DNA of 63,942 bases, filler included, from Caldilineae bacterium (GTDB lineage Bacteria > Chloroflexota > Anaerolineae > DTLA01), in assembly GCA_037446815.1 (NCBI GenBank). It is 3 parts of 3 records of this genome, joined end to end, with 100 filler letters (N's around TTAATTAATTAA, not from the genome) between each part and the next. Parts side by side here need not be neighbours in the genome. Positions count along the whole stretch, not along the records: positions 1 to 28,885 come from JBBIHX010000025.1; 2 more parts are not named here. One strand, 5' to 3'. Below are positions 21,601 through 27,600 of this stretch, piece by piece. Each line of letters begins with the position of its first letter. Positions within the stretch are counted from its first letter, which is position 1. The position numbers were made by a program.

Positions 21601-24600
21601 GGGCTGACCGCCCGCAGGGCTTTGTGCCCTCAGCCCGATGCTTCAGCGTCGGGCGGCCCCACCCTTTGCCCAATCCGTGCCATCCGCGTCATCCGTGGAG
21701 GGACAACGTGCGTCGCGCGTCATCGCTACAGGTATAACTCCGGCCGCAGACCCTGGGCCACGGGCAGCCGCCGCCGCGCCTTGGCTACCTCGCCAATGTC
21801 CACATCGGCGCGCAGGATTTCTTCCCCCTCGCCCGCCTCGGCCACGCGCTCGCCCCACGGCGAGGTAATCACCGAGCGCCCCGCCAGCGCCTCGCCGTTG
21901 CACAGGCCCACGCCATTGGCCCCGATGAGGAAGGCCAGGCTTTGCAGCGCCGTCGCCACGGTCAGGGTGCGCCAGTGCTCCCCCCGCGTCCGCGGCCACT
22001 GGGCGGCGACGAGCAGGAGTTCCGCCCCTTCGGCCATCATGCGCTGGAACAGGCCGGGGAAGCGCAGGTCATAGCAGATGGCGAGGCCCACGCGCCCGAG
22101 GCCCGTGGGCACGACGACAACCTCGCCGCCGGGGGTGAAGTAGGCCGGCTCGGCGAGCAGGGGAATCAGGTGCGCCTTGCGGTAGCGCGCCAGAAGTCTC
22201 CCCTCGGGCCCGGCCAGCGCCAGCGTGTTGTAGAACCGCTCGCCGTCGCGCTCGGCCATGCCCCAGGCCAGGTAGGCGCGGTACCGCGCGGCCAGGCCCG
22301 CCATCGTCGCGGTCGTTTCGCCGTCCATCGGCTCGGCCAGGGCAGGCAGGTTGGGCAGGTCATAGCCGCAGGTGGCGAGTTCCGGCAACACCACCACCTG
22401 CGCGCCCTCGTCCAAAGCCTGCCGCGCCAATTCGGCCATGCGGCGGCGGTTGCGGGCCAGGTCGCCCGCGGCAATCTCCATTTGCGCCGCGGCAACCCGA
22501 ACAACGGGCATAGTCCCCGCCTCCTCTCCAAGAACCGAGGCCAGGCCACAGGGGCAGCGCAGGTCGGCCCGCGCCCTGTGGCCCGTCGGTGCTACGGCGC
22601 GTACCGGAACGGATGCCGCGCCGCCTCTTTCTCCGCGACCAGTTCCTCGTAGGTCGGGCGGCCTTCCAGCGCCTTGCGAACCGCCGCCTTCATCGCCTTG
22701 AAGTTGTTGATGCGGACGCGGAAGCGGTTGCTGGCGCCCGGATGCACGAACACATTCGCGATGAGCACGATGTCGTCCAGCAGCGCCGCCGGCAGCGTGC
22801 CGTCCTTGACCAGCGCCTCCAGGGCCATGACAACGCCGCTCGCGGCGTGCTCGTACACGTTCTCGGCCTGGCGCTTCGTGCGCACCGTTACCGTGGGCAC
22901 GAGCAGCGTTCGCGGGCGCTCAAAGATGACACGCAGTTCGTGGCCCGGGCGCGGCTCGGCCAACGCCCGCGCGATGGCCTTCCCCACCGGGCCATCCTTG
23001 CGGCCGATGAGCAGGTCAATGTGGGCCAGTTCCGAGAACGGCGGGCCGGCGAACCCCTCGCCCACGAGGAGTGTCATGTCCCGCACCTCGCTCGGGGCGG
23101 CGGGCGGCTTTGGGAACTGGCTCGTTGCCGTCGGGCCGCCCGGGTACAGGTGGTACGTCATGGGGCGCGGCGGAATCTTGCCCAACTCCTCCAGGACGCC
23201 GCGCACCTCCTCGTAGTCCTCGCGGCGGAAGGCGTCGCCCTTCATCATGGGGTGGCGCGAATCGCCGATGGGAAGCCCCAGCAGTTGCAGCGCCTCCTTG
23301 ACCGCCTGGGTCGGGCCTTGCCGAGCCAGGATGCGGACGAATCGCTGGATGCGCGCCATGAGCGTCTGCGCCGTCGCCAGGTCGCCCGACAGGACGGCCT
23401 TGTAGATGGTCTGCCACACGTCGGGGATGACGTTGGCGCTGGCGAGGATGGCGCCGTCGGCCCCCATGGCCAACGCCGCCGGCACGATTTCGTCGTGGCC
23501 GGTGAAGATGCCGATCTTGCCGCGCACCTTCTCAAACACCGCCATCAGGTAGGGCATGTCGCCGCTGGAATCCTTGATGCCGACGACGTTCTCCAGATAG
23601 GCCATGCCCTCGGTCGTCCACCATTGATAATGGGTGCCCGCGCACTGGGGGATGTTGTACAGGATGAGCGGCACGCCCAGTTTGTTCAGCGCATCGTAGT
23701 GATCGTACACCTCGTTGAACGAAGGCTTCAGGTAGTAGGGCGCGGCAACCAGGGCAGCGGTAACGCCGGCATCCCGCGCCCACGCCGTCATCTTCACGGT
23801 CTCGCGGGTGGACGGGTAGGCGGTACCGGCGACGACCGGCACGCGCCCGTTGACCTCATCCAGGGCGATTTCAATGGCCCGCTTGCGCTCGTCCTCCAGC
23901 ATGTACACGAACTCGCCCGTGGTGCCGCAGGGGACGATGCCGTTGACATGGGGCAGGACGTAGCGGATGAGTTCTCGGTAGGCGGCCTCATCCACGCGGT
24001 CGTCCTTGGTGAAGGGCGTAACCAGGGCGGGGAAGATTCCTTTGAACCAGTCGGGTTTCTTGGACATGGGTCTCTCCTTCTACCTGATGTGCCTCACGCG
24101 CCGAATGCCTGGCGGATGGCAGCGCCTGCCGCGGCAAGCACCGCCTGGTACAGGGCGTGGCGATCCAGGGCCTTGGGATGCACGCTGGCCTGCACCAGCA
24201 TCACGTGCGTGTCCATGGCGGATTTGGGAATGACGCCCTCTTCCAGCGCGTCTACGATGGCGCGGGCTACTGCTGCCTGGGTCGGGCCGTAAATCATGTT
24301 GGCCTGGCGCAGGTTCCGCAGTTCCGCCGTCGGGACGATGAGCGTGGACGGTCGCACGGTGAGATTCGGCTCCAGGATGGTGGTCAGCGCCTCGTAGCCG
24401 TGGCGCGGGTAGGTGAGTTGCAGGGCGAACACTTCGCCGACGATGCCGTCCTTCGGCCCGGCGATGAGGTCTACTTGGACGTTTTCCGGCTCGGCGCCCG
24501 CCGCTCCGGTACCCACGCGCAGCGACTCTGCCCGCACCTGCTGGGGCGAGATGCCCAGCGCGCCGAACCGCTCGGCGACAGGCCCGGTCGGCGGCGCATA

Positions 24601-27600
24601 GGCGCTGTCTTCGGAGTCAATCTTGCCCAGGCGCTCCAGTTCCAACTGAATCTCGGCCCGGTCCTCGTGGGTGAGGCTTCCGCCCACCTTCAGCGGTCGC
24701 CGCGCCTGGCCCACGGGAATCCCCATCATGTTCAGCGCCTGCTTGACGGCCAGCCCGCCCCCGTAGCGGCAGAAGATGCGCGACAGTTTCTGCACGCTCC
24801 GTTGCAGGGCGCGGGCCTCCTCAATGCGGCCCTCCTGGACGGCGGCGTAGACCTTCTGCCACACCTCGGGGTAAACGTTGGCGCTGGCCAGAATCATGCC
24901 GGTGCACCCGCCCGCCAGCGCAGGCAGCACCACCTCGTCGTGGCCGATGAACACGTCAATGCGCCCCTGCACCATCTCCAAGATTTCCATGGTGTAGGTG
25001 AGGTTGCCCGATGAGTCCTTGATGCCCACGATGTTCGGGATCTCCGATAGGTCCTCCACGACGTTGCGCGGCAGGTAGGCGTCCACCACCTGCGGGATGT
25101 TGTACAGCAGGATGGGGAGGTCCACCGCCATCGCCACATCGTAGAAATGCTGGTAGATGCCCTTGTCGGACGGGTGGAGGAAGAAGGGCGTAACGACAAG
25201 GCAGGCGTTGGCTCCGGCATCTTTCGCGTTGCGGGCCAGGAGAATCGTCTCCTTGGTGCCGGCGGCGCCCGTTCCGGCGATGACCGGCTTGCGGCCCGCG
25301 ACTTCGTCCACGACGATGGAGATGACGCGCTTCTGCTCGTCGGGCGTCATGTACGGGAACTCGCCCGTGGTGCCGCAGGGGACAAACCCGTCCACATGGG
25401 GCAGGAGGTGGCGCACCAACGCGCGCAGCGCCGATTCGTCCACCTCTTCGTCTTTGGTAAATGGCGTTACCAGCGCGGGGAAGACGCCCCGCAGCCACGG
25501 CAGTTTTGCAGGCATTCAACAACCTCCGTAGTAGGGTTCGCGGGACGCGCGGGCCAGCACCGCCGCCCCATGCGGTCGGCAGCGCCGGAATCCCGCGCGC
25601 TCCTTGCGGATGACTTGTGCCGGGTTACGGCTTCGGGATGGCCAGGCCCTTGCAGCCCTGCTTGGAGAGGATGAGGTCGGGCTGGTTCTCCTGAATCAGG
25701 GTGTGGATAATCTCGGCGTACTTCACCTTCTCGCGGGCGAAGTCGGCGAGGGCCTGCGGGCTGGTCCACGGCTTGTACAGCGCCCCAGGCCCGGCGGCGC
25801 AGGCCGGCCCAGGCTCTATCTTGAAGTAGCACGGCGCGCAAACCCGCGCCATCTCGGCCCCGTCGTAGAACCGATTGTACCCGCCAAAGGACTCGGCCAG
25901 ATAGATGTGCAGGTCCATCGGGATGTCCACCGCCTGGCGGATGGAGGCCAGTTGCGGCAGGCTCAGGTCGCCGACGGGGTTGAACGTCCCCGCGCCCAGC
26001 GACTGGAGCACCTTGCCGCCGGCGGCCGAGGCGTGCCCCGCGTAGATGGAAACCTTGAACGTTACGTCCTCCGGAATCTCCCCGGCCTTGCGGAGTTCGT
26101 TCAGGAGCCAGAGGAGGCCCTCATCAATCACGAGAAAGCCGCGGAAGCCGATCTCAATGCACGTGAGAATGTCGGTGATGACGTAGCGGAGTTGATCGGA
26201 GCCGCGGAAGCGGAGGCCGGAGAGGCCGCCCTCGGGCGTTACCACTTGCCGACCCACATCCCACGCCGCACGCGGCCCAGGGGTGAGAATGACCTCCAAC
26301 TTGTTCTCGGCGGCGATTTGGGCGAAATCGCGGAGTTCCGCCCGATCCAGGAGCGTGGCGCCCATGACTACGGAGATGACACGGTGGATGGGGATTTTGC
26401 GCCGGTTCATCTCATCAACAAGCGCTTCCAGAACGTTGGGGCGCTCCACGCCGGAGATCTCCATGCGGTAGTGGGCGCCATCGGGGAAGCGCTTGGGGCT
26501 AGATGGAAGGTCGTAGGCGTCCCGTCCGGGGATGCCCACCCGCTCCATCATCTTGGCGACGCGATCCATATTCATTTGTCAACCCTCCTTCGCAATATTG
26601 ACTGGCCTCTTTGCCGCAAATTCCCGCGGAGGTAAGGAAAAGGAACACAACGTTCGGGCGCAGTATACCATGCCCGATGGGGTGTGTCAATCTGAATAGG
26701 TGGGGGTGGCGTGCGCGGTTCCAAAGTCTGTTGGCATCTACCGTCATTCTGAGCGGCGAAGCCGCGAAGAATCTCGCTGCCCGAGATGCTTCGCCTTCGG
26801 CTCAGCATGACAGAGTGGGGAGGCGGCGCGCGGGGCAGACCAACACAAGATGGAACCGAATCAGGTGGGGGGGTGGCGTGCGCGGTTCTATTCTGTGTCG
26901 GTGAGCAAGGTGCGACGCACTTCCGGAAGTGCGTCGCACCTGTAAGAACCGCACCGATGCGCTACGCAGCATACCATGGGGGCGAGGGGTGTCAATCCGC
27001 GATGCGCGGGGCAGCACCAGAACCGCGAATAACACGAATCCACGCGAATGGGGAACGTGCGATGCACCTCCGAGGTGCGTCGCACGTTGTCTACCCACGG
27101 ATGACACGGATTGCACGGGTGGCGCGCATAGATGCCGTTCGGGTTCACGGCGCACCCGAAGTGGATTCGGTTCCAAAGTCCGTTGGTACCCGTCATTGCG
27201 AGGGCACGCAGTGCCCGAAGCAATCCCCGGGGCGTGGGATTGCTTCGCTTCGCTCGCAATGACACACGAGGCGAGTGCGCCTACGGTTCACCAACACAAA
27301 ATGGAACCGAATCCCGAAGCGGCAACCTGTCCGCACGCAGAGGCTATTTGCTGGCGTTTCGGCTCTGTACCCACGCGGCGATGTCGTCCACCACCTCGCG
27401 GGCGACGTTGCCAGCCACGTCATATTCGGCCGGATTGGGCGCGCCGCTCCCCGGCATGAACAGGTGGTTGAGATTGGGGTAGGACTTGAACTGCACGTCG
27501 CCGCGCTGCCCAAGCCCCGCCTGCCACGCGGCGAAGTTCTCCATGGTAACCTGGTAATCCCGCTCGCCCTGCAAGATGAGCATGGGCATCGCCAGCGACC

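Follow-up and report, generated by a model that had tools for sequence, protein, structure and literature searches.

A pair of aldolase-Fae fusion genes

The window analyzed here is a stretch of 63,942 nucleotides, filler included, from the genome of a Caldilineae bacterium. Two adjacent minus-strand genes within it encode fusion proteins that we call subunit A (22592..24067, 491 aa) and subunit B (24094..25515, 473 aa), exactly the open reading frames reported in the first-pass annotation; the 26-nt spacer between them (24068..24093, minus strand) carries the ribosome-binding site GAAGGAGA. Each protein joins a DHDPS-family aldolase domain to a C-terminal Fae domain, with Pfam figures close to those given previously. 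In A, the aldolase domain (residues 8-278, E 5.5e-71) is encoded at 23234-24046 and a full-length Fae domain with a C-terminal arm (335-487, E 3.4e-34) at 22607-23065; in B, the aldolase domain (8-289, E 2.8e-73) is encoded at 24649-25494 and a truncated Fae domain (335-471, E 8.4e-36) at 24103-24513, all on the minus strand. The two proteins share 44% identity over 474 aa (E 3e-130), and they account for both of the DHDPS matches and both of the Fae matches in the source genome, which is 93.6% complete. Full-text literature searches returned no paper describing an aldolase-Fae pair, in line with the earlier view that it is undescribed.

Directly upstream of B lies a conserved gene for a 316-aa TIM-barrel protein (25625..26575, minus strand), often the third member of the module, which the first-pass annotation had missed. 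We found no Pfam or NCBIfam family for this protein; its fold resembles those of U32, CutC and class II aldolases, and Atlas leads to U32-like clusters. Its AF2 model (pLDDT 83.8) gives VIA Z scores of 14.3-14.9 against CutC, the YdjI aldolase, class II FBA and U32 Mk0906, a flat ranking. Orthologues occur in 74/401 genomes of the class, and in 61 of these 74 the Fae pair is present as well.

Upstream of this first gene of the putative operon is a promoter-like site (26662..26690, minus strand; TTGACA, 17 nt, TATACT, with a TG) that agrees with the consensus at 11/12 positions, a consensus match only; the region holds two such sites, compared to a mean of 0.7 in shuffles. At the other end, a GC-rich hairpin directly 3' of the A stop codon (22525..22591, minus strand) may mark the end of the transcription unit; at -40.8 kcal/mol (z -2.77) it is matched in stability by 1/200 shuffles, and it shows no clear U-tract. 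The flanking genes are housekeeping genes (SufS-family desulfurase, Nfo, TpiA), and the genes neighboring the pair gave no clue to its substrate. The omega-amidase-like neighbor previously linked to the pair proved to be a generic Nit-type CN_hydrolase that scores under every NCBIfam cut-off and is not conserved next to the pair outside the genus; a functional link between the two is not supported.

Co-occurrence and distribution of A and B

Of 401 genomes sampled from the class, 89 have matches: 80 of these have exactly two, six have one, and three have three. The pair had been described as widespread in Anaerolineae; matches do occur in these 89/401 genomes, but the distribution is patchy, all-or-none by family, and in a phylum-wide sample matches appear in only 7/401 genomes. 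Likewise, the count of four out of four genomes in the order refers to four congeners, since the order holds only five genomes of one genus.

Among the matches listed, 150 of 175, 61 genomes have one A and one B; 43 of these pairs share a contig, and in 42 of the 43 both genes are on the same strand with B first. Each of the 11 genomes examined individually has a single full-length and a single truncated Fae match, including two in which the A and B genes are on separate contigs. A and B co-occur 1:1; these genomes are MAGs and related to one another, so the counts are not independent. Transcription would usually run through B and then A, often behind the conserved TIM-barrel gene.

In a quick tree of 90 Fae domains, those of the fusions group in a single clade (SH-aLRT 91), within which B makes up a subclade (98). 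Relatives of the pair also occur in Asgard and Kor-archaea, which had not been noticed before, and Lokiarchaeota have an undivided form of the Fae-aldolase protein (P0010).

Both aldolase domains are intact and neither is DapA

Both proteins contain the GTTGE and GIKDSSG motifs, as previously noted. The Schiff-base lysine, Lys165 of A (codon 23573..23575, minus strand) and Lys166 of B in GIKDSSG (25018..25020, minus strand), is found in 99% of 109 A-type and 100% of 113 B-type sequences. Together with the threonines of GTTGE and the tyrosine of YNIPQ, the lysine of KDSSG is 98-100% conserved in these sequences, which argues that aldolase chemistry is under selection in both Chloroflexota subunits. 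Judged by these residues, the aldolase domains of A and B are both intact and belong to the class I (Schiff-base lysine) 2-oxo-acid aldolases of the DHDPS/NAL family. Their substrate pockets have diverged from one another; an invariant, A-specific pair, Trp149-Trp150 (23618..23623, minus strand), lies in the loop after YNIPQ, where B has Arg150.

Sources label the pair DapA. True 4-hydroxy-tetrahydrodipicolinate synthases with an extra regulatory domain would explain this name, the score of B on the TIGR00674 dapA model (230 bits, above the cut-off of 206) and the fact that the best PDB sequence matches of the aldolase part are all DapA; aspartate semialdehyde should also be available, given that homoserine dehydrogenase is present in 5/5 genomes. 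But A scores 199.4 bits, under the same cut-off, and both subunits lack the Arg of the YNxPxR motif: Cys142 occupies the corresponding position in A and, in an alignment to solved DapA chains, Val143 of B pairs with the Arg of YNVP(G/S)R. Among pair-holding genomes, moreover, DapB_C was found in 0/6 (source genome included) and DapF in 0/5, while LysW is present in 5/5, which points to the alpha-aminoadipate route. These observations support the earlier rejection of a DapA function; we consider it largely refuted and give it hardly any credence, and the pair is mislabelled as a lysine-pathway enzyme. Scores of A and B on the NanA, KdgD, HpaI-type and archaeal KDG-aldolase models are also under their cut-offs.

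One Fae active site appears to be divided between the subunits

The similarity of the Fae part to the solved Fae 1y5y was confirmed (E 5.6e-21, 155 aligned residues), and both domains exceed the cut-off of the TIGR03126 fae model (118.05), A at 130.4 and B at 120.4 bits. As a reference, we took the 27 positions with a conservation of at least 85% across 70 canonical Fae domains; a canonical member matches on average 24.5 of these. A keeps 18 of the 27 positions and B also 18, whereas the union of A and B keeps 24; the undivided Lokiarchaeota form keeps 23/27.

The residues missing from one subunit include some of those expected at the active site. His349 of A (codon 23021..23023, minus strand), which corresponds to His22 of M. 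extorquens Fae, is invariant (100%) in 109 A-type sequences; at this position B has Gln347 (24475..24477, minus strand), and the 113 B-type sequences have Gln in 96% and His in 1%. Conversely, the canonical GPxQ motif is kept in B as Gly410-Pro411-Thr412-Gln413 (24277..24288, minus strand), with G410, P411 and Q413 each in 100% of 113 B-type sequences, and is lost in A; by position its Gln413 is Gln88 of M. extorquens Fae. The positions of both residues were matched to the 1y5y sequence. We take His22 to be the acid-catalyst His and Gln88 to contact the pterin; these roles reportedly go back to Acharya et al. 2005. The C-terminal arm (ARHPFRYAP) is confined to A, and a 5-residue Fae loop is missing from A. 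On this sequence evidence, the Fae residues are divided, with the loop of the catalytic His as well as the C-terminal arm in A and the GPxQ helix in B, a division of labor overlooked in the first-pass annotation.

When the Fae domains of A and B were folded together, the predicted dimer reached an ipSAE of 0.89 (0.86-0.90 in three runs), compared to 0.01 for the best control, a value that may reflect memory of the solved Fae homopentamer; the mark that we used is reached by 116/157 solved complexes and 2/215 mismatched pairs. The runs have at least 88% of contacts in common, with a partner pLDDT of at least 85. The A:B fold by itself does not tell a hetero- from a homo-oligomer. The predicted interface involves residues 337, 349, 351, 359-365, 390-394 and 483-487 of A and residues 364, 382-388, 410, 413 and 421-422 of B, so that His349 of A and residues 410 and 413 of B lie inside it. 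The columns contributed by A have a conservation of 0.95 in A versus 0.73 in B, and those contributed by B, 0.87 in B versus 0.70 in A (Mann-Whitney p 4e-8, the columns and sequences not being independent). In the model, the A:B interface brings the conserved Fae faces together.

Could the Fae domains serve only as assembly modules, holding two distinct DHDPS-family aldolases in one heteromer that acts on ordinary, non-C1 substrates such as 2-keto-3-deoxy sugar acids? The GHDE and KDSSG motifs of the pair presumably resemble those of sugar-acid lyases of the DHDPS family, and the protein encoded upstream has a TIM-barrel fold like that of class II aldolases and U32. Sugar-acid genes occur near the Lokiarchaeota form (UDP-glucose dehydrogenase at 29 loci, UxaC at 4 loci), and the failure to find H4MPT markers would also fit. 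Fae is moreover a robust oligomerizing fold, used as a pentamer scaffold in an engineered Avd-Fae fusion. A pure scaffold, however, would need neither the invariant His of A-type and GPxQ of B-type sequences nor the 24/27 canonical positions kept between the subunits, and the columns lining the canonical cofactor cleft are the most conserved. We regard this explanation as unlikely.

C1 context and proposed function

The earlier statement that this is not a standard H4MPT Fae is borne out by searches of pair-holding genomes: MCH was found in 0/6 (source genome included) and beta-RFAP synthase over its cut-off in 0/9 genomes. An FTR match of 89 bits in one congener (G403) either comes from contamination or hints at H4MPT enzymes. 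The hosts do have C1 enzymes of folate metabolism, with FolD in 5/5 and SHMT in 9/9 genomes. Canonical Fae reportedly does not accept tetrahydrofolate, whose condensation with formaldehyde is spontaneous; for these reasons, and because no H4MPT markers were found, the pterin partner is a candidate only.

These folate enzymes, and the fact that both Fae domains pass the NCBIfam cut-off, would suit a complex whose main function is the Fae-type site, activating or detoxifying formaldehyde with tetrahydrofolate or another amine carrier, while the DHDPS domains act chiefly as scaffold or regulator. One divergent lineage fits this idea: in P0009 and P0150, which probably share a 79.6-kb contig, both subunits lack the Schiff-base Lys and the GTTGE threonines (the YN tyrosine is lost in P0009 and kept in P0150), and the split Fae residues are retained. 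The Fae site can thus be retained when aldolase catalysis is gone, and the case for obligatory coupling is the weaker for it. The near-complete conservation of the aldolase catalytic residues in both Chloroflexota subunits speaks against such a secondary role, as does the lack of formaldehyde-producing or methylotrophy genes near the pair, and we find it distinctly unlikely.

In canonical Fae chemistry, formaldehyde bridges two nitrogens. The complex might accordingly make or remodel a small molecule or cofactor, with a nitrogen-containing product of the aldolase, not a pterin, receiving the methylene bridge at the Fae-like site. Searches of the hosts turned up no known pterin pathway for Fae, and a conserved uncharacterized enzyme is often co-transcribed with the pair, both of which would agree with this scheme; it is conjecture throughout, however, and the Gln88 equivalent is strictly kept in B, making it very unlikely in our judgment.

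We tentatively favor, as quite possible though short of probable, a reading in which A and B form an obligate heteromer whose two Schiff-base aldolase sites, both intact, are coupled to a single composite Fae site for pterin and formaldehyde. The two-subunit enzyme proposed earlier is now much better founded, through the 1:1 co-occurrence, the complementary Fae residues and a predicted interface that joins the conserved faces. A and B would be subunits of a hetero-oligomeric enzyme, and we infer that the heteromer forms in the cell: each protein has an aldolase and one complementary half of the Fae site, so it probably must pair to work. One ancestral inter-subunit active site would have been divided between the two C-terminal Fae domains, A giving the catalytic-His loop and C-terminal arm and B the GPxQ helix and its adjoining loop. 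With the halves divided in this way, only the interface of A (face 1) with B (face 2) would form a complete Fae-type site. This site most likely binds a reduced pterin, presumably tetrahydrofolate in these H4MPT-less bacteria, and either adds formaldehyde to it by condensation or sets formaldehyde free again. Formaldehyde would then pass between the Fae and aldolase sites as their shared intermediate, by analogy with archaeal Fae-Hps.

As for the aldolase, we can only infer its substrate and the direction of its reaction. The only DHDPS-type reaction with formaldehyde that we know of is pyruvate + formaldehyde <-> 4-hydroxy-2-oxobutanoate, and since homoserine dehydrogenase is present in 5/5 genomes, there is no missing pathway that needs this product.

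Comparison with known systems

Among DHDPS/NAL-family aldolases, the pair resembles DapA, NanA, KDG aldolases, YagE and YjhH in being a TIM-barrel Schiff-base aldolase with GTTGE, YN.P and K..SG motifs, and differs from them in carrying the Fae fusion; compared to DapA, it lacks the Arg at the aspartate-semialdehyde-binding position and its hosts lack the DAP pathway. PanB, the ketopantoate hydroxymethyltransferase that uses a 2-oxo acid and methylene-tetrahydrofolate, is a possible functional analogue in that it transfers a C1 unit from a pterin to C3 of a 2-oxo acid, but its fold is unrelated and its chemistry metal-dependent. PanB and PanC were each found in 0/5 pair-holding genomes, so the pair is unlikely to serve pantoate synthesis.

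The 8ub7_B chain named 'Avd', raised earlier as a second solved Fae-like protein, carries the M. extorquens Fae sequence. We rejected it as a natural relative of the pair, since it is an engineered Avd-Fae fusion (bioRxiv 10.1101/2023.10.23.563531).

M. extorquens Fae itself (PDB 1y5y/1y60) is a homopentamer with its sites between subunits. The pair belongs to the same fold family, scoring above the PF08714 and TIGR03126 cut-offs, and conserves the active-site residues when A and B are taken jointly. In contrast to that enzyme, neither subunit is complete, with the His only in A and GPxQ only in B, the arm absent from B and the 5-residue loop from A, and the assembly is probably heteromeric.

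Archaeal Fae-Hps (Fae with 3-hexulose-6-phosphate synthase) is, like the pair, a fusion of Fae to a carbon-carbon lyase, an arrangement in which formaldehyde can pass between both activities; Fae + OMPdecase fusions occur among the representatives (P0018, P0023, P0026, P0066). The pair differs from Fae-Hps in that its partner is a class I DHDPS-family aldolase and not the OMPdecase-fold Hps, its domain order is reversed with Fae C-terminal, its bacterial hosts lack H4MPT markers, and it consists of two paralogous fusions with one split Fae site.

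Tandem aldolase-Fae fusion genes

The first-pass annotation described a tandem of genes, each encoding a DHDPS-family aldolase fused to a C-terminal Fae domain, and our searches recovered the same arrangement. Both genes are on the minus strand at exactly the coordinates first reported: the upstream gene, at 24094-25515, encodes a 473-residue protein (B), and the downstream gene, at 22592-24067, encodes a 491-residue protein (A). They are separated by a 26-nt spacer with GAAGGAGA ahead of the ATG of A, and a hairpin (-40.8 kcal/mol, z -2.77) follows the stop codon of A. Pfam finds both domains in both proteins, DHDPS at residues 8-278 (E 5.5e-71) and Fae at 335-487 (E 3.4e-34) in A, DHDPS at 8-289 (E 2.8e-73) and Fae at 335-471 (E 8.4e-36) in B; in the latter, the Fae match stops at profile position 138 of 159. 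The two-domain architecture is well supported. A and B are 44% identical across 474 residues, and they are the sole DHDPS matches and the sole Fae matches in their genome (3.19 Mb in 265 contigs, 93.6% complete).

The names that these proteins carry in databases follow from family cut-offs. B scores 230 bits against the dapA equivalog TIGR00674, above its cut-off of 206.15 (A, at 199.4, falls below), and both proteins exceed the cut-off of 118.05 for TIGR03126, fae, with 130.4 bits for A and 120.4 for B. Against PF08714, the pair scores 118.6 and 123.8 bits, both above the cut-off of 27. The best 120 database matches to each Fae part all carry PF00701 together with PF08714; they are called DapA, Fae or hypothetical, and those from named organisms are Chloroflexota or Anaerolineae. 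When we scanned 19 representatives of the wider family, we found ten DHDPS-Fae fusions, four proteins combining Fae with OMPdecase (Fae-Hps), three combining Fae with SDR and two with Fae only. In the cluster representatives P0050, P0081 and P0129 a canonical Fae precedes a short-chain dehydrogenase domain, another Fae fusion architecture.

Distribution of the pair

One full-length and one truncated Fae match occur in all five genomes of the order (one genus), in G002 and G015, which belong to another family, and in four named MAGs, two of which have A and B on separate contigs. The pair had been called widespread in Anaerolineae. This holds to the extent that Fae matches occur in 89 of 401 sampled genomes of the class and 53 of 216 genera; the distribution is patchy, however, with whole families either positive or negative (e.g., 9/9 and 10/10 versus 0/15 and 0/15 in the class sample). 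Exactly two matches are present in 80 of the 89 positive genomes, one in six and three in the remaining three. Among the 150 of 175 matches listed, at least 61 class genomes hold one A and one B; the two share a contig in 43 cases and are directly adjacent in 34, and of the 43 same-contig pairs, 42 have B preceding A with both genes on one strand. In a phylum-wide sample, matches were found in 7 of 401 genomes. The B gene of about a dozen class genomes has a Fae profile match that overruns the stop of B by roughly ten positions, with one TAG, TAA or TGA inside (e.g., G402:C86:48331-48780 and G403:C250:16340-16789); the match has probably run by chance into the spacer between the genes or marks the trace of a lost C-terminal part.

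Division of the Fae residues between A and B

In the canonical Fae of Methylobacterium extorquens, the cofactor reportedly sits in a cleft between neighbouring subunits; His22 is said to be the acid catalyst, Gln88 to flip upon binding and the C-terminal arm to gain order. We take His22 to be the catalytic residue and Gln88 the one that contacts the pterin. The sequence of the solved chain 1y5y has His at position 21 and Gln at 87, matching this numbering with an offset of one.

We searched 1.84 billion representatives, which gave 509 clusters at E ≤ 0.001, took 70 canonical Fae domains from the results and defined as canonical the 27 columns that are at least 85% conserved among them. Canonical members keep 24.5 of the 27 positions on average; A keeps 18 and B keeps 18, and the union of the two keeps 24. 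A retains Glu337, Ala348-His349, Asn454-Asn455 and the C-terminal arm ARHPFRYAP, with His349 present in 100% of 109 A-type sequences; it is without the GPxQ motif and a 5-residue loop, and has Ala409 at the canonical Gln position. B retains Arg403-Gln404, Tyr409-Gly410-Pro411-x-Gln413, Asp422 and the 5-residue loop missing from A, and the G, P and Q of its GPxQ motif are each present in 100% of 113 B-type sequences. The C-terminal arm is absent from B, and Gln347 occupies the position of the catalytic His (Gln in 96% of B-type sequences). The catalytic His and the canonical Gln are thus not found together in either polypeptide of the pair: His349 is in A and Gln413 is in B. That the pair lies outside standard Fae, as first proposed, is well supported, given that neither subunit has the full residue set and that MCH was found in none of six pair-holding genomes.

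Where another solved chain, 8ub7_B ("Avd"), aligns to the Fae part, its sequence is identical to that of 1y5y at every letter. We rejected it as a natural relative: it is an engineered Avd-Fae construct in which, according to the preprint, Avd carries M. extorquens Fae at its C-terminal end to serve cryo-EM as a pentameric mass tag (bioRxiv 10.1101/2023.10.23.563531).

We co-folded the Fae domains of the pair (A 325-491 and B 322-473, with alignments of 51 and 50 rows) as a dimer only. The model reached an ipSAE of 0.89 (0.86-0.90 in three runs) versus 0.01 for the best control; of 157 solved complexes, 116 reach the ipSAE mark, compared with 2 of 215 mismatched pairs. The runs agree on at least 88% of contacts, and the pLDDT of the partner is at least 85. 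This result speaks to likeness, not binding, and may reflect memory of the solved Fae pentamer. The geometry of the model is more telling: the predicted interface comprises residues 337, 349, 351, 359-365, 390-394 and 483-487 on the A side (face 1, with the His loop and the C-terminal arm) and residues 364, 382-388, 410, 413 and 421-422 on the B side (face 2, with the GPxQ helix), and these are the type-specific conserved residues of A and B. Columns contributed by A have a conservation of 0.95 in A versus 0.73 in B, and those contributed by B have 0.87 in B versus 0.70 in A (Mann-Whitney p 4e-8, for columns and sequences that are not independent). It therefore appears that only the interface between face 1 of A and face 2 of B is strongly constrained and that the reverse interface has decayed. 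This pattern favours an A:B unit over a closed homomeric ring.

Aldolase domains

By sequence, the aldolase core is intact in both proteins. Residues T49/T50, Y137/Y138 and the lysine K165 (A) or K166 (B) are 98-100% conserved among 109 A-type and 113 B-type sequences; the Schiff-base lysine is Lys161 in E. coli DapA numbering. At the second Tyr of the PYY motif, equivalent to Tyr107, 75% of the A-type sequences have Y and 91% of the B-type sequences have F.

The pocket of DapA is another matter. We take Arg138 (E. coli numbering), in the motif YNxPxR, to be the residue of DapA that binds the carboxylate of aspartate semialdehyde. In alignments with the solved DapA chains 6p90, 2yxg and 3qze, the P-(G/S)-R of YNVP(G/S)R falls on P-Q-V of B (YNIPQV), so the Arg position is Val143 in B; in A it is Cys142. 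It is Cys in 95% of the A-type and Val in 74% of the B-type sequences, and Arg is absent among the residues listed. Other positions are at least 90% conserved within one type, for example W149-W150, H146, K114, N118, E119 and C84 in A and R150, D145, H114, K118 and G119 in B. Because many of these type-specific positions differ between A and B, their substrate pockets are probably not equivalent.

The genomes point the same way. DapB_C was found in none of six pair-holding genomes from three genera and DapF (DAP_epimerase) in none of five, all of them 92-98% complete MAGs with positive controls, and LysW, which acts as carrier protein in the alpha-aminoadipate route, is present in 5/5. We therefore reject DapA (EC 4.3.3.7) as the identity of the pair, in agreement with the first-pass annotation; that A and B lie outside DapA is well supported. 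Related activities are not supported by NCBIfam scores: the pair reaches 147 and 145 bits for N-acetylneuraminate lyase (nanA; cut-off 382) and 99 and 117 bits for KdgD (cut-off 374), and falls far under the cut-offs for HpaI-type and archaeal KDG aldolases.

A frequent third gene and other surroundings

Upstream of B lies a 316-residue ORF at 25625-26575 on the minus strand, preceded by a promoter-like site at 26690-26662 (minus strand; 11 of 12 consensus matches), such that the order is promoter-like site, 316-residue protein, B, A. Every source labels this protein hypothetical; it has no Pfam match even at E 10, including to PF01136, and no NCBIfam family. Its model is a TIM barrel (pLDDT 83.8) whose closest folds, CutC, YdjI, class II FBA aldolases and the U32 protein Mk0906 (Z 14.3), are tied at Z 14.3-14.9. 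With so flat a ranking, we assign the fold alone. Likeness to Peptidase U32 is limited to the fold of Mk0906 and to Atlas feature neighbours, 17-23% of which carry PF01136; with no profile match of its own, the protein is not assigned to that family.

The 316-residue protein is 72-82% identical across families, a higher conservation than that of A or B. Of 401 class genomes, 61 have both this gene and the pair, 28 the pair only, 13 the 316-residue gene only and 299 neither (odds ratio 50, among relatives that are not independent). It lies 1.5-3.6 kb from the Fae domain of B on the same contig in 28 of 31 genomes compared, a spacing that would fit a gene placed immediately before B. We regard it as a third component, frequent yet not obligatory. 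A paralogue with 36-38% identity is encoded elsewhere in the same genome (G000:C43:9397-10311).

Downstream of A are genes for a Nit-type CN_hydrolase, a SufS-family desulfurase, an IscU-like ORF, Nfo and TpiA, all housekeeping. The CN_hydrolase had been listed as an omega-amidase-like neighbour; tblastn did not find the flanking genes of the window near the pair in six loci outside the genus (L008, L010, L011, L012, L029 and L030), and we rejected an omega-amidase/aminotransferase connection. The cysteine desulfurase (20082-21380, minus strand; TIGR01979 350 bits, below cut-off) and the 132-residue ORF just downstream (19657-20055, minus strand; no family match, IscU/NifU-like by eye) possibly form a pair for Fe-S assembly. 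Of the window, positions 1-28885 are on contig C25 of the assembly and 28886-63942 lie off it; the latter include a run of glycoside-hydrolase genes at 31099-39264 (CBM96, GH3, GH35/42 and glucoamylase-like).

Scanned against Rfam, six loci (57 kb; the window's own leader above 26575 lay outside them) showed no RNA leader or riboswitch upstream of the genes. The scan returned only two chance miRNA matches and a skipping-rope RNA (RF02924, 43.7 bits versus a gathering score of 36.7) at L008:9046-9151 on the minus strand, between the B and A genes. At this locus an unrelated AP_endonuc_2 gene is inserted between B and A and a PBECR2-like nuclease gene also lies beside the RNA; in L012, the insertion at this point consists of toxin-antitoxin-type genes (HEPN, UPF0175, DUF3368).

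Undivided and divergent relatives

In a quick tree of 90 Fae domains, those of the fusions form one clade (SH-aLRT 91), within which B is a subclade (98). The fusions extend to archaea: judging by cluster names, P0010 (112 members) comes from Lokiarchaeota / Promethearchaeota and P0014 from Korarchaeota / Thermoproteota. P0010 keeps 23 of the 27 canonical Fae positions, with the His, GPAQ and the arm in a single chain. By its sequence, it is the undivided form, at the base of the fusion clade.

A 427-residue protein is encoded directly upstream of the P0010 gene in all 49 Lokiarchaeota-type metagenome loci with enough upstream DNA (among L043-L122). This protein, X427 (for instance at L043:2847-4130 on the plus strand), has no match in Pfam, PDB sequences or Atlas, and its low-confidence model (pLDDT 64.6) matches only a generic TIM barrel at a TM of about 0.3. 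It shows no homology to B (hhalign probability 0.1%), homology to the upstream TIM-barrel protein of Chloroflexota is unsupported (hhalign probability 3.5%; hmmsearch E about 5), and tblastn found no homologue in the window's genome (best E 0.09). In L076 (111-2396), the C-terminal part of the 427-residue protein and the DHDPS-Fae gene make up one 761-residue ORF.

The Schiff-base Lys and the GTTGE threonines are gone from both DHDPS domains of a divergent A/B pair, P0009 and P0150/P0412, whose members are probably on one 79.6-kb contig. The YN tyrosine is gone in P0009 and kept in P0150, and both keep the split Fae residues.

Discussion

The original finding is real and more structured than it first seemed, with a split Fae site and a frequent third gene. 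From sequences and the predicted dimer, we conclude that A and B belong to a two-gene, often three-gene, module for a putative heteromeric aldolase-Fae enzyme whose composite active site would be divided between the subunits. The pair was also said to be undescribed, and a full-text literature search, with subscription-only papers outside its reach, likewise found no description of a DHDPS-Fae fusion; in its accessible portion, PMC11291895 mentions Fae-Hps alone.

For the chemistry of the enzyme, we offer a hypothesis. H4MPT markers were not found, apart from one FTR match: in addition to the result for MCH, beta-RFAP synthase is above cut-off in 0/9 genomes, and FTR (formylmethanofuran:H4MPT formyltransferase) is absent from the window's genome and three other pair-holders. 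The fifth, a congener, has a match (G403:C110:8333-8776, minus strand, 89 bits) that reflects either contamination (3%) or what is left of an H4MPT metabolism. The genomes do encode enzymes of folate C1 metabolism (FolD in 5/5 and SHMT in 9/9), which makes tetrahydrofolate the obvious candidate pterin in the bacteria, with H4MPT as the candidate in the archaea. The aldolase domains could catalyze a pyruvate Schiff-base reaction, 4-hydroxy-2-oxobutanoate <-> pyruvate + formaldehyde, with formaldehyde transferred between the Fae site and the aldolase sites.

Taken as a whole, the A/B complex, joined in the genomes that have it by the upstream TIM-barrel enzyme, might be a natural pterin-coupled C1-C3 lyase, a joint reading that we put forward tentatively and consider unlikely to be right in full. 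It would interconvert pyruvate and pterin-bound formaldehyde with 4-hydroxy-2-oxobutanoate, the carrier being methylene-tetrahydrofolate in Chloroflexota and methylene-H4MPT in Lokiarchaeota and Korarchaeota, and the complex would have arisen through a duplication that left each of two paralogues with part of an inter-subunit Fae active site. Should formaldehyde/pterin coupling prove true, the pair would define a C1-C3 reaction new to knowledge, found in about a fifth of sampled genomes of a class abundant in sediments and bioreactors and in Asgard archaea, and the lyase would include the first tetrahydrofolate-using Fae-type enzyme.

Several metabolic roles can be set aside. The pair might replace PanB, which is found in 0/5 genomes, but PanC is also found in 0/5, so there is no visible pantothenate pathway to serve. 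Homoserine dehydrogenase is present in 5/5, leaving no homoserine gap for an alternative route to fill, and with SHMT in every genome searched we rejected a replacement of SHMT as C1 source.

Whatever its reaction, the pair is mis-annotated throughout databases. Hundreds of entries are named DapA or formaldehyde-activating enzyme, neither of which is correct (240/240 best matches carry both domains), and as a result of this misnaming lysine synthesis and methylotrophy are predicted too often for genomes of Chloroflexota and Asgard archaea. The pair would also show cleanly, in nature, how paralogues can share out an inter-subunit active site after duplication, with an undivided relative surviving in Lokiarchaeota (Asgard archaea).

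Three known systems invite comparison. If the lyase reading is true, the enzyme would do in nature what an engineered formaldehyde-pyruvate aldolase does in the synthetic "homoserine cycle". The transfer of formaldehyde that we propose is drawn by analogy with Fae-Hps, in which a hexulose-phosphate synthase of the OMPdecase fold is fused to Fae; in contrast, A and B have no OMPdecase domain, and their NF009833 matches (89 and 111 bits versus a cut-off of 274) are confined to the Fae part. Finally, M. extorquens Fae carries its His and Gln in the same chain, whereas the pair divides them between A and B.
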